Assembly: GCF_013122565.1 (NCBI RefSeq)
Contig: NZ_CP053258.1
Length of the DNA: 64,000 bases
Reading direction: 5' to 3' (one strand)
Origin: Escherichia coli
Lineage (GTDB): Bacteria; Pseudomonadota; Gammaproteobacteria; Enterobacterales; Enterobacteriaceae
Shown here: piece by piece, positions 22,787 through 24,640 of the stretch
How the letters are laid out: the number at the start of each line of letters is the position of its first letter
How positions within the stretch are numbered: the first letter of the stretch is position 1
Notes under the pieces: generated by a model
Database searches by the model: none
What the model was told of the DNA's origin: nothing
Seen by the model: the letters and a program-made list of their open reading frames with translations, nothing else
Made by a program: the position numbers and the translations under genes

Positions 22787-24640
22787 ATGAAAATGACTTT
22801 GCCGTTTAAACCCCATGTGCTGGCGCTAATTTGCAGTGCCGGGCTTTGTGCCGCCTCTACCGGGCTATATATAAAAAGCCGCACAGTGGAAGCGCCTGTG
22901 GAACCGCAATCGACACAACTGGCTGTGTCTGACGCTGCCGCGGTTACGCTTCCTGCAACGGTTTCCGCACCTCCCGTAACACCCGCCGTCGTTAAATCCG
23001 CATTCAGCACTGCACAAATAGATCAATGGGTCGCGCCCGTCGCGCTATACCCCGACTCTCTGCTTTCACAAGTGTTAATGGCATCAACCTATCCGGCAAA
23101 CGTTGCTCAAGCAGTGCAATGGTCGCACGATAACCCACTTAAACAAGGCGATGCTGCTATTCAGGCGGTATCTGACCAGCCGTGGGACGCTAGCGTCAAA
23201 TCACTGGTGGCCTTTCCACAATTGATGGCGTTGATGGGCGAAAACCCGCAATGGGTGCAAAACCTGGGCGATGCTTTTCTGGCGCAGCCGCAGGACGTGA
23301 TGGACTCGGTACAGCGATTGCGGCAACTGGCGCAACAAACCGGCTCGCTGAAGTCATCAACCGAACAGAAAGTTATTACCACAACGAAGAAAGCTGTACC
23401 GGTAAAACAGACAGTCACGGCACCCGTCATACCATCCAATACCGTTTTAACTGCCAACCCCGTCATTACAGAGCCGGCAACAACCGTCATTTCCATTGAG
23501 CCCGCCAATCCTGATGTGGTCTATATTCCCAACTACAACCCAACCGTGGTTTACGGGAACTGGGCCAATACTGCGTATCCGCCGGTTTATCTGCCACCAC
23601 CAGCCGGAGAACCGTTTGTTGACAGCTTTGTGCGCGGATTCGGCTATAGCATGGGCGTTGCTACCACGTACGCACTATTCAGCAGCATCGACTGGGACGA
23701 CGACGATCATGACCATCATCATCATGACGATGATGATTATCATCACCACGATGGCGGTCATCGTGACGGTAATGGCTGGCAACACAACGGCGACAACATC
23801 AATATCGACGTCAACAATTTCAACCGTATCACCGGTGAGCATCTTACTGATAAGAATATGGCATGGCGGCACAATCCAAACTACCGTAATGGTGTGCCCT
23901 ATCATGATCAGGATATGGCAAAGCGGTTTCATCAAACCGATGTCAACGGCGGAATGAGTGCCACGCAGCTACCTGCTCCAACACGCGACAGCCAGCGTCA
24001 GGCGGCAGCAAGTCAGTTTCAGCAACGAACACACGCCGCCCCCGTCATTACACGAGATACCCAACGTCAGGCAGCGGCACAGCGGTTTAATGAAGCTGAA
24101 CACTATGGGAGCTATGACGACTTCCGCGACTTCAGCCGTCGCCAACCACTGATCCAGCAACAAAAGGACGCCGCTCGTCAGCGTTATCAGTCAGCTTCTC
24201 CTGAGCAGCGCCAGGCAGTTCGCGAGAGAATGCAGACTAACCCGCAGATCCAGCAGCGAAGAGAGGCAGCGCGTGAGCGCATTCAGTCCGCCTCGCCTGA
24301 GCAGCGCCAGGCAGTCCGCGAGAAAATGCAGACTAACCCACAGATCCAGCAGCGAAGAGACGCAGCGCGTGAGCGTATTCAGTCAGCCTCGCCTGAGCAG
24401 CGCCAGGTGTTTAAGGAAAAAGTACAGCAGCGCCCACTGAACCAACAGCAACGTGATAACGCCCGCCAGCGTGTTCAATCAGCATCACCTGAACAACGTC
24501 AGGTTTTTCGGGAGAAAGTTCAGGAGAGCCGCCCACAACGTCTAAACGACAGTAACCATACTGCCAGGCTGAATAACGAGCAACGGTCAGCAGTACGCGA
24601 ACGTCTCTCTGAGCGCGGAGCAAGGCGACTGGAAAGGTAA
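22787..24640 (+). CDS. yacH: Uncharacterised secreted repeat protein YacH (DUF3300-like)
   Basis: 617-aa ORF with signal peptide, His/Asp-rich tract, and four tandem 33-aa repeats (SASPEQRQAVRE..QTNPQIQQRR). Confidence 0.8.
   Translation: MKMTLPFKPHVLALICSAGLCAASTGLYIKSRTVEAPVEPQSTQLAVSDAAAVTLPATVSAPPVTPAVVKSAFSTAQIDQWVAPVALYPDSLLSQVLMASTYPANVAQAVQWSHDNPLKQGDAAIQAVSDQPWDASVKSLVAFPQLMALMGENPQWVQNLGDAFLAQPQDVMDSVQRLRQLAQQTGSLKSSTEQKVITTTKKAVPVKQTVTAPVIPSNTVLTANPVITEPATTVISIEPANPDVVYIPNYNPTVVYGNWANTAYPPVYLPPPAGEPFVDSFVRGFGYSMGVATTYALFSSIDWDDDDHDHHHHDDDDYHHHDGGHRDGNGWQHNGDNINIDVNNFNRITGEHLTDKNMAWRHNPNYRNGVPYHDQDMAKRFHQTDVNGGMSATQLPAPTRDSQRQAAASQFQQRTHAAPVITRDTQRQAAAQRFNEAEHYGSYDDFRDFSRRQPLIQQQKDAARQRYQSASPEQRQAVRERMQTNPQIQQRREAARERIQSASPEQRQAVREKMQTNPQIQQRRDAARERIQSASPEQRQVFKEKVQQRPLNQQQRDNARQRVQSASPEQRQVFREKVQESRPQRLNDSNHTARLNNEQRSAVRERLSERGARRLER
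24173..24560 (+). repeat. Four tandem ~99-bp coding repeats inside yacH
   Basis: First two units nearly identical at DNA level (…cctgagcagcgccaggcagt(t/c)cgcgaga(g/a)aatgcagactaaccc…), units 3-4 degenerate. Confidence 0.8.

Follow-up and report, generated by a model that had tools for sequence, protein, structure and literature searches.

Length variation of a His/Asp-rich tract and a basic repeat tail in YacH, a DUF3300 protein of Escherichia coli

The yacH gene lies at positions 22787..24640 of the 64,000-nucleotide (nt) stretch of Escherichia coli DNA analysed here (the window; contig NZ_CP053258.1), and encodes a protein in which a His/Asp-rich tract and a tail of tandem repeats both vary in length between strains, almost always in frame. 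YacH consists of a hydrophobic N-terminal export signal (predicted), a variable linker, a conserved alpha+beta core (approximately residues 70–400) with the tract as an acidic loop within it, and the basic tail. The explanation that we consider best as a whole, at a probability of about 0.6, is that of a conserved core carrying a variable acidic loop and a basic repeat tail, with a role in the cell envelope; the structural and genetic half of this explanation is close to certain, and the functional half, which is argued by analogy, has roughly one chance in four. The gene was already annotated and its family catalogued, and the length polymorphism is a modest addition to this, not a new kind of system or element. 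An earlier description of the same DNA, made from the letters alone (the sequence-only reading), had pointed to both variable segments; its observation was confirmed and its interpretation partly supported, and it had missed the origin of the tract as an expanded loop, the basic tail, and the absence from Escherichia of the DUF2950 gene that accompanies DUF3300 genes elsewhere. The features on which the argument depends are as follows.

22787..24640, + strand: yacH coding sequence (617 residues and stop codon), from the list of open reading frames (ORFs), its annotation in other genomes and its substitution pattern
23009..23785, + strand: match to Pfam DUF3300 (residues 75–333), modelled as an all-helical domain (residues 75–184) followed by beta strands
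23690..23770, + strand: His/Asp tract DWDDDDHDHHHHDDDDYHHHDGGHRDG (residues 302–328), with 12 Asp and 9 His in 27 residues
23771..23980, + strand: conserved post-tract core (residues 329–398) with the motifs NINIDVNNFNR and W(R/Q)HNPxxRxGVPY, mostly beyond the end of the Pfam model at residue 333
23981..24025 and 24050..24094 (span 23981..24094), + strand: two TRD(S/T)QRQAAA motifs, each predicted to be helical (helices 400–414 and 426–433)
24146..24529, + strand: four tandem, Arg/Gln-rich units of 32 residues (96 nt), each predicted to form a helix-turn-helix
24530..24637, + strand: degenerate fifth unit and C-terminal end (RPQRLNDSNHTARLNNEQRSAVRERLSERGARRLER), running to the stop codon and aligning with the C-termini of enterobacterial orthologues

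Length variation of yacH across Escherichia coli

Length was compared in systematic samples of 60 genomes, drawn from the 5,425 matching genomes among 5,426 complete E. coli genomes. The whole gene spanned 1854 nt in 30 of these, 1758 nt in 17, 1764 nt in 6 and 1815 nt in 2, with spans of 1884, 1782 and 1742 nt in one genome each and partial matches in the remaining two. The repeat region contained four units in 32/60 genomes (~53%) and three units in 25/60 (~42%; span of 505 versus 601 nt), and was partial in 3/60. The tract, taken with 90-nt flanks, was of the same length in 49/60 genomes, longer by 6 nt in six, by 24 nt in one and by 1 nt in one, shorter by 39 nt in two and partial in one, and approximately 18% of sampled genomes differ in tract length. 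Repeat number and tract length, which the sequence-only reading had proposed to compare across E. coli genomes, thus both vary, and its statement that the repeats are prone to length change is borne out by alleles with three, four and five units and by the tract indels.

In a protein alignment of the fetched alleles, the indels were confined to the N-terminal linker (a duplication of the 11 residues APVEAQSTQLA in one allele, L004), the His/Asp tract, and whole 32-residue units. A five-unit allele was found in the protein database (P0004), which also contained further in-frame duplications of 4, 17 and 45 residues. The tract ranges from 15 residues (P0113) to 36 residues (P0106, with three copies of DDDDYHH), with His runs of 3 to 6. 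Alleles with three (A12), four (strain 64) and five units (P0004) occur on a common allele background, which indicates that at least some of the copy-number changes are recent.

The coding sequence of the tract is made up of short runs of GAY and CAY codons. Two of its sequenced indels are exact duplications, one of CATGAC in tandem and one of a 24-nt block, another is the loss of one CAT, and the 39-nt deletion falls between TCATC microhomologies; all of these are marks of slippage. From these sequence signatures we infer that replication slippage is the probable cause of variation in the tract, and either slippage or unequal recombination in the tail. An 8-bp deletion at codon 284 of yacH in Salmonella Typhimurium (GATCATCA; reference codons gac gat cat cac) has made the gene a pseudogene in strains 14028s, UK-1, SL1344 and D23580 relative to LT2 (PMC3391293, PMC10048834), and the codons at the deletion site are of the same GAY/CAY type as those of the E. 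coli tract. A phase-variable, on/off contingency locus was considered and rejected, as the changes of 3, 6, 24, 39 and 96 nt are all multiples of three and nearly all changes are in frame; single cases of +1 or −1 nt were present in the samples, and these could be errors.

The repeat array itself is far beyond chance. Tandem Repeats Finder reported 24146..24407 with a period of 96 nt, 2.7 copies, 86% matches and a score of 398, and the units have the coordinates 24146..24241, 24242..24337, 24338..24433 and 24434..24529. In the best register, 24216..24311 and 24312..24407 are identical at 90/96 positions (93.8%), and the longest stretch without a mismatch is 22 nt, so that the earlier remark on two nearly identical first copies holds in this register; when the register starts at Pro, pairs of units are 65–81% identical. 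The sequence-only reading had placed four 33-residue units at 24173..24560. These coordinates refer to one and the same array, read in another register; the number of units stands, and the unit length is corrected to 32 residues. The two RD(S/T)QRQAAA half-repeats that it had listed ahead of the array are likewise present at the positions given above. In other Escherichia alleles, too, the tail units are kept as repeats of the protein sequence, the half-repeat motif is conserved in the form (D/N)xQRQAA among other Enterobacteriaceae orthologues, and these orthologues have shorter related units of ~16–18 residues, of the form NPTxQQQQRRxxAKxxLQ.

Domain architecture of YacH

The region 22787..24640 is a single long ORF on the + strand, as the sequence-only reading had it, and its identification as YacH agrees with both Pfam and the existing annotation. 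Pfam PF11737 (DUF3300) matches residues 75–333 with an expectation value (E) of 1.3e-78, covering model positions 2–227 of 227, and is the sole Pfam match at E up to 10; no match was found to the NCBIfam models or to models of anti-phage defence. The annotation "yacH: DUF3300 domain-containing protein" is at the same place in 5,425/5,426 complete E. coli genomes, and at least 80% of the gene length is covered in 5,372/5,426. The allele in the window has 97.3% identity to those of K-12-type strains, and 99.6% to its best match. A protein search at 90% identity gave variants from Escherichia and Shigella only, and distant relatives were therefore taken from a search of 50%-identity representatives, of which the DUF3300 family has 9,565. 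The ORF is thus yacH, near-universal in Escherichia and a member of a very large family. No function is assigned to YacH in the databases searched or in the searchable literature, in agreement with the sequence-only reading.

AlphaFold2 models, based on an alignment of 102 family members, predict that residues 70–200 are all-helical with a predicted local distance difference test (pLDDT) score of ~96, followed by beta strands, and a separate model of the core (residues 68–400) reached a mean pLDDT of 84.6 and a predicted template modelling score of 0.83. Conservation does not stop at the end of the Pfam model: the family consensus continues as ...VxINVNRxN...WxHNPxHRxGVxYRD. No solved structure resembles the full-length or the core model, the best Foldseek match of the full model to solved structures having an E of 0.49 and nothing being usable, and the DUF3300 family itself has no solved structural relative among the structure matches. 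Sequence searches of the PDB with the whole protein, the tail and a DUF2950 protein returned only His-tags, designed helical repeats and noise.

The His/Asp tract is located between the strands at residues 299–301 and 338–341, with pLDDT <50 at residues 310–314 and 318–334, and residues 301–330 have a net charge of −11. The low-complexity stretch noted previously at about 23690..23790 is present, and its coordinates are 23690..23770. Across the 102 family members the equivalent segment has a median length of 4 residues (for example GHDD or HHGD), and it reaches 17–38 residues in only a few: the protein of the window, its closest homologues (P0121, P0124 and P0126), P0129 and P0174. The short segment in most relatives, together with the position between two strands, indicates that the tract is an expanded beta-hairpin turn within the conserved fold and not a separate domain, with the expansion mainly found in Enterobacteriaceae. 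A His/Asp-type tract is kept in every enterobacterial orthologue fetched, with differing sequence and length. ORFs in other phases cross the tract DNA at 23496..23957 (+ strand) and 23675..23935 (− strand) of the window and have odd products rich in Met, Ile and Thr (MTIIIMTMMIIITTM). They arise from the repeated codons and are not genes, as is also true of the long antisense frames that the ORF list shows over acnB.

The tail (residues 449–617) has a net charge of +19 and consists of 20% Arg and 20% Gln. The AlphaFold2 model places helices at residues 449–563, two for each 32-residue unit, with pLDDT of 80–90 over approximately residues 460–540, and the tail is thus predicted to be an array of helical hairpins.

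The N-terminal part of YacH contains two further features.

22787..22873, + strand: putative export signal or membrane anchor (residues 1–29), with a basic n-region (MKMTLPFKPH) followed by a hydrophobic stretch (residues 11–29)
22874..23008, + strand: variable linker rich in Pro, Ala, Thr and Val (residues 30–74), with pLDDT of 47–56, a ratio of nonsynonymous to synonymous substitution rates (dN/dS) of 0.4–0.56, and the 11-residue duplication in one allele

Residues 11–29 are the sole strongly hydrophobic segment of YacH in a Kyte-Doolittle scan, scoring 1.91 as compared to 1.29 for the runner-up, and a possible signal-peptidase site, judged by eye, follows AAS24. A lipobox-like motif was found in 12/102 DUF3300 family members, and signal peptides have been reported for the family (PMC4653623). 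Given the single hydrophobic segment at the N-terminus and the lipoprotein signals of some relatives, the description of YacH as secreted in the sequence-only reading is better worded as predicted export to the cell envelope. A second membrane-spanning segment at residues 280–300 (GFGYSMGVATTYALF) was considered and rejected, as its hydrophobicity is too low and it is modelled as core strands.

Partner gene, selection and regulation

Outside Escherichia, a gene encoding a DUF2950 protein (PF11453) is present close downstream of the DUF3300 gene in 16/16 loci, from Salmonella enterica subsp. arizonae, Kluyvera, Raoultella, Klebsiella, Enterobacter, Buttiauxella, another enterobacterium, Bordetella, Bradyrhizobium and six metagenome contigs; in the five loci with gene calls that were read, the spacing ranged from a gap of 17 nt to an overlap. 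The same pairing has been noted in rhizobia (PMC4653623). An enterobacterial homologue with 56% identity is adjacent to acnB, as yacH is, and has the partner gene. No DUF2950 gene was found in the window (no remnant by tblastn) or at any Escherichia locus examined, and a DNA search with the Salmonella gene against the 5,426 E. coli genomes gave only a spurious 65-nt match. In the arizonae DUF2950 gene (L021, ~6190..6260), the similarity to relatives ends at approximately residue 218 of 264, and ~65 nt at that point match many E. coli plasmids, in some cases close to annotated mobile genes, a group II intron among them. A replacement of the 3′ end of the gene is possible.

All eight other Enterobacteriaceae orthologues contain the motif A(F/L)SGN(D/E)SR(S/A)P(S/N)W near the C-terminus, within a wider family consensus of A(F/L)xGxxxxxxR....RG..SR. 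The motif, in the form A(F/L)SGNDSRSPSW, was not found in YacH of E. coli or E. albertii (comparison of L014 and L021–L028 with window positions 24500..24637), and these motif-lacking proteins are also the ones without a DUF2950 neighbour. As this represents a single evolutionary event, the link between loss of the partner and loss of the motif is a lead and not a result.

The allele of the window was compared with seven other alleles. The overall dN/dS was 0.08–0.20, with 0.00–0.07 in the helical domain, 0.0–0.36 in residues 329–398, 0.07–0.20 in the repeats and 0.3–0.57 in the linkers, remaining <0.6 in all segments; for the comparison with E. albertii it was 0.10. This indicates purifying selection along the whole gene, so that yacH is maintained and in use and tolerates its length variants. 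The gene is far more diverged than its neighbours, with 31% of genomes having <95% identity for yacH versus none for lpd or acnB, and the divergence is mosaic, with a synonymous rate (dS) in one allele pair of 0.78 in one linker versus 0.05 in residues 329–398, which suggests recombination between old alleles. The yacH gene of E. coli AST85 (L009, 920..2779; NZ_AP043644.1) has a dS of ~2 and a nonsynonymous rate (dN) of 0.16 relative to the window, with E. albertii being closer (dS 0.94), and its N-terminal linker is distinct, with 25 additional residues inserted ahead of the repeats; this strain either belongs to a cryptic Escherichia lineage or carries an imported yacH allele.

Broken copies also occur, and these indicate that the function is dispensable in the laboratory. 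In E. coli E69 (L020, 5114..5811; CP089930.1) the insertion sequence IS1 interrupts yacH after approximately codon 371, with recognisable InsA and InsB frames and the 3′ part resuming at ~5870, and there is also a partial deletion inside one unit (SASPEQHPLNQQQ). The yacH copy of UC4315, a laboratory mutant, is frameshifted.

Published data connect yacH with envelope stress. Expression of yacH is under the control of CpxR and is repressed by protamine, on which a deletion mutant survives better (PMC9600279); expression of the gene is ~16-fold lower in a rob mutant (PMC7537768), and its promoter responds to ampicillin by induction (PMC8865558). A recent regulatory survey lists it among uncharacterised genes (PMC12133099). 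The regulation by CpxR and Rob, the induction by ampicillin and the protamine phenotype fit a role in the envelope.

The gene is flanked by acnB (19835..22585, − strand) and by lpd (24711..26198, − strand), the latter being convergent with yacH and separated from it by 70 nt. A scan for promoter and terminator consensus sequences gave nothing convincing upstream of yacH, and it also missed a hairpin in the yacH-lpd gap that was read directly from the sequence.

24652..24681, no strand assigned: inverted repeat AAAAAAA-GCGGC-GTGGTTA-GCCGC-TTTTTT

This inverted repeat has the shape of an intrinsic terminator that would act in both directions. Strain 536 (L007, 2195..2365), as well as SSGw1 and KC-Dl-1, has ~170 bases more between yacH and lpd than the window (24641..24710), and the extra DNA contains a palindromic sequence similar to repetitive extragenic palindromic elements (GCCTTATCCGACCTAC; in reverse, GGATAAGGCGTTTACGCCGCATCCGGCA). 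In the divergent acnB-yacH spacer (22586..22786), GTAAA-N6-GTTAA at ~22634..22649 is a near-match to the CpxR half-site arrangement, and a TATACT hexamer resembling a −10 element is located at 22718..22723, lacking a good −35 element. A study using systematic evolution of ligands by exponential enrichment (SELEX) placed a site for the RpoF holoenzyme in this spacer (PMC5493296).

Proposed explanation and comparison with known systems

We infer that YacH probably acts in the periplasm or envelope. There, the His/Asp loop would act as a disordered polyanion, either binding divalent metal ions or titrating with pH, similarly to the loop of ZnuA. The basic tail of helical hairpins would bind to anionic components of the envelope, or else to the acidic loop of YacH itself, with the number of units setting the reach or avidity of the tail. 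In other bacteria the DUF3300 protein would work with the product of the adjacent DUF2950 gene, and in Escherichia this partner, and also the family-wide C-terminal motif, would have been lost. A more specific version, to which we give little credence, is that YacH is a periplasmic electrostatic switch, in which pH or metal load would determine whether the acidic His loop (net charge −11, 9 His) and the protamine-like tail (+19) are bound to each other or to the anionic envelope. Such a switch would alter the access of cationic peptides to the inner membrane, with frequent in-frame slippage tuning the number of units and the length of the loop; Escherichia would then have evolved a partner-independent form after the loss of DUF2950, and the DUF3300 core would be a fold without a solved relative.

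Several observations weigh against the explanation of YacH as an envelope protein with a functional loop and tail. The functional part draws on composition and analogy, and the metal-binding role that the sequence-only reading had suggested for the tract is, on the same grounds, only plausible: ZnuA was the only natural, non-His-tag sequence in the PDB to be aligned to the tract, with an E of 9.9 that is not significant and an apparent likeness of composition only. Most complete genomes have one tract length, and variation is thus greater in the repeat array than in the tract. The AlphaFold2 confidence scores for the tail were obtained with an alignment in which this region is poorly conserved, and the array of hairpins is only predicted. 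Finally, IS1 or frameshifts have disrupted yacH in a few strains, and the gene is also broken in most of the S. Typhimurium strains compared; a strain with yacH deleted is healthy and has a fitness advantage in the presence of protamine (PMC9600279).

The loop and tail could instead be neutral spacers, that is, disordered filler without a specific ligand, drifting in length on slippery DNA. The tails of DUF3300 proteins are of low complexity and lineage-specific (Gly/Arg-, Asn-, Gln- or Ser/Pro-rich, with other tandem repeats in P0129), alleles of three units (42%) and of four units (53%) occur side by side, and the deletion mutant grows well; the dN/dS of 0.07–0.20 in the repeats is not neutral, however, and the His/Asp composition is kept in every enterobacterial orthologue despite the differences in sequence and length, with indels that are nearly all in frame, which makes neutrality of the two segments unlikely, at about one chance in four. 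Slow decay of a gene made dispensable by the loss of DUF2950, with the indels, IS insertion and frameshifts as early pseudogenisation, has in its favour the missing partner gene and C-terminal motif in Escherichia, the IS1 insertion in E69, the frameshift in UC4315, the pseudogene in most S. Typhimurium strains compared, and the improvement of both protamine survival and recombinant protein yield upon deletion of yacH. We regard such decay as improbable, given the presence of the gene in 5,425/5,426 genomes (5,372 of them with a coverage of 80% or more), the purifying selection that extends to the comparison with E. albertii, and the regulation by CpxR and Rob.

The divergence of yacH relative to lpd and acnB, its mosaic pattern, and the extracellular location assigned to YacH by one localisation predictor (quoted in PMC9600279) could also point to a surface target under diversifying selection, in which variation aids escape from phages, colicins or host immunity. 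As dN/dS is below 0.6 in every segment and low in the repeats, YacH has no beta-barrel, autotransporter or sorting signal, and the phage-defence models gave no match, we consider this slightly more improbable than gene decay. That the tail is a tandem periplasmic chaperone module of the CpxP/Spy (LTXXQ) type is very improbable. This possibility derives from the SASPEQRQAVRERMQ motif, which resembles the LTEHQRQQMRDLMQ of CpxP, from a single BLASTP comparison of the tail with CpxP (34% over 91 columns with both LTXXQ motifs aligned, E 0.001), from a Smith-Waterman score reached by only 4 to 6 of 2,000 shuffles (z of 3.8 for CpxP), and from the regulation of yacH by CpxR. In the same comparison z was only 0.7 for Spy and 0.2 for ZraP, whereas CpxP versus Spy gave 24; neither Pfam (E up to 10) nor NCBIfam returned an LTXXQ match, neither CpxP nor Spy was among the PDB sequence matches (E up to 10) or the structure matches listed, and the tail and CpxP are both Gln/Arg-rich helices. 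Membership of the CpxP/Spy family was thus rejected, with the weak CpxP signal standing beside negative Spy, ZraP, profile and structure searches.

YacH is an ordinary "y-ome" gene product, and the details described here are of moderate interest for work on the E. coli envelope and on uncharacterised genes. Direct comparison is possible among the natural alleles, which have three, four or five tail units and loops ranging from 15 to 36 residues, and the Escherichia gene, being an orphan, allows partner-dependent roles of DUF3300 to be told apart from partner-independent ones. The links with Cpx, Rob, ampicillin and protamine suggest a choice of assays.

ZnuA is a periplasmic zinc-binding protein with a flexible His-rich loop, and similar His/Asp tracts occur in metal-handling proteins. 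YacH is predicted to share with it an acidic, His-rich and apparently disordered loop inserted in an exported protein, but the rest of YacH is unrelated. With CpxP, Spy and ZraP, the YacH tail has in common its helical, Gln/Arg-rich character, the (S/T)xEQ(R/Q)Q sequence at helix starts and the Cpx regulation, but it has no detectable relation to Spy or ZraP. In-frame tandem-repeat polymorphism is known from bacterial envelope proteins, such as the repeat-rich central domain of TolA and the surface proteins of Gram-positive bacteria. The likeness is that units of 3n bases are gained or lost by slippage or unequal recombination with the protein kept intact; YacH is no on/off switch for phase variation. 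The closest comparison is with other DUF3300 proteins, with which YacH shares the predicted N-terminal export signal, the helical domain, the VYVPxYNPxVVYG beta region, and the W...INVN and WxHNPxHRxGVPY motifs. Unlike these relatives, Escherichia YacH has neither a DUF2950 neighbour nor the C-terminal motif, and it is set apart from them by its greatly expanded His/Asp loop and its own array of 32-residue repeats.

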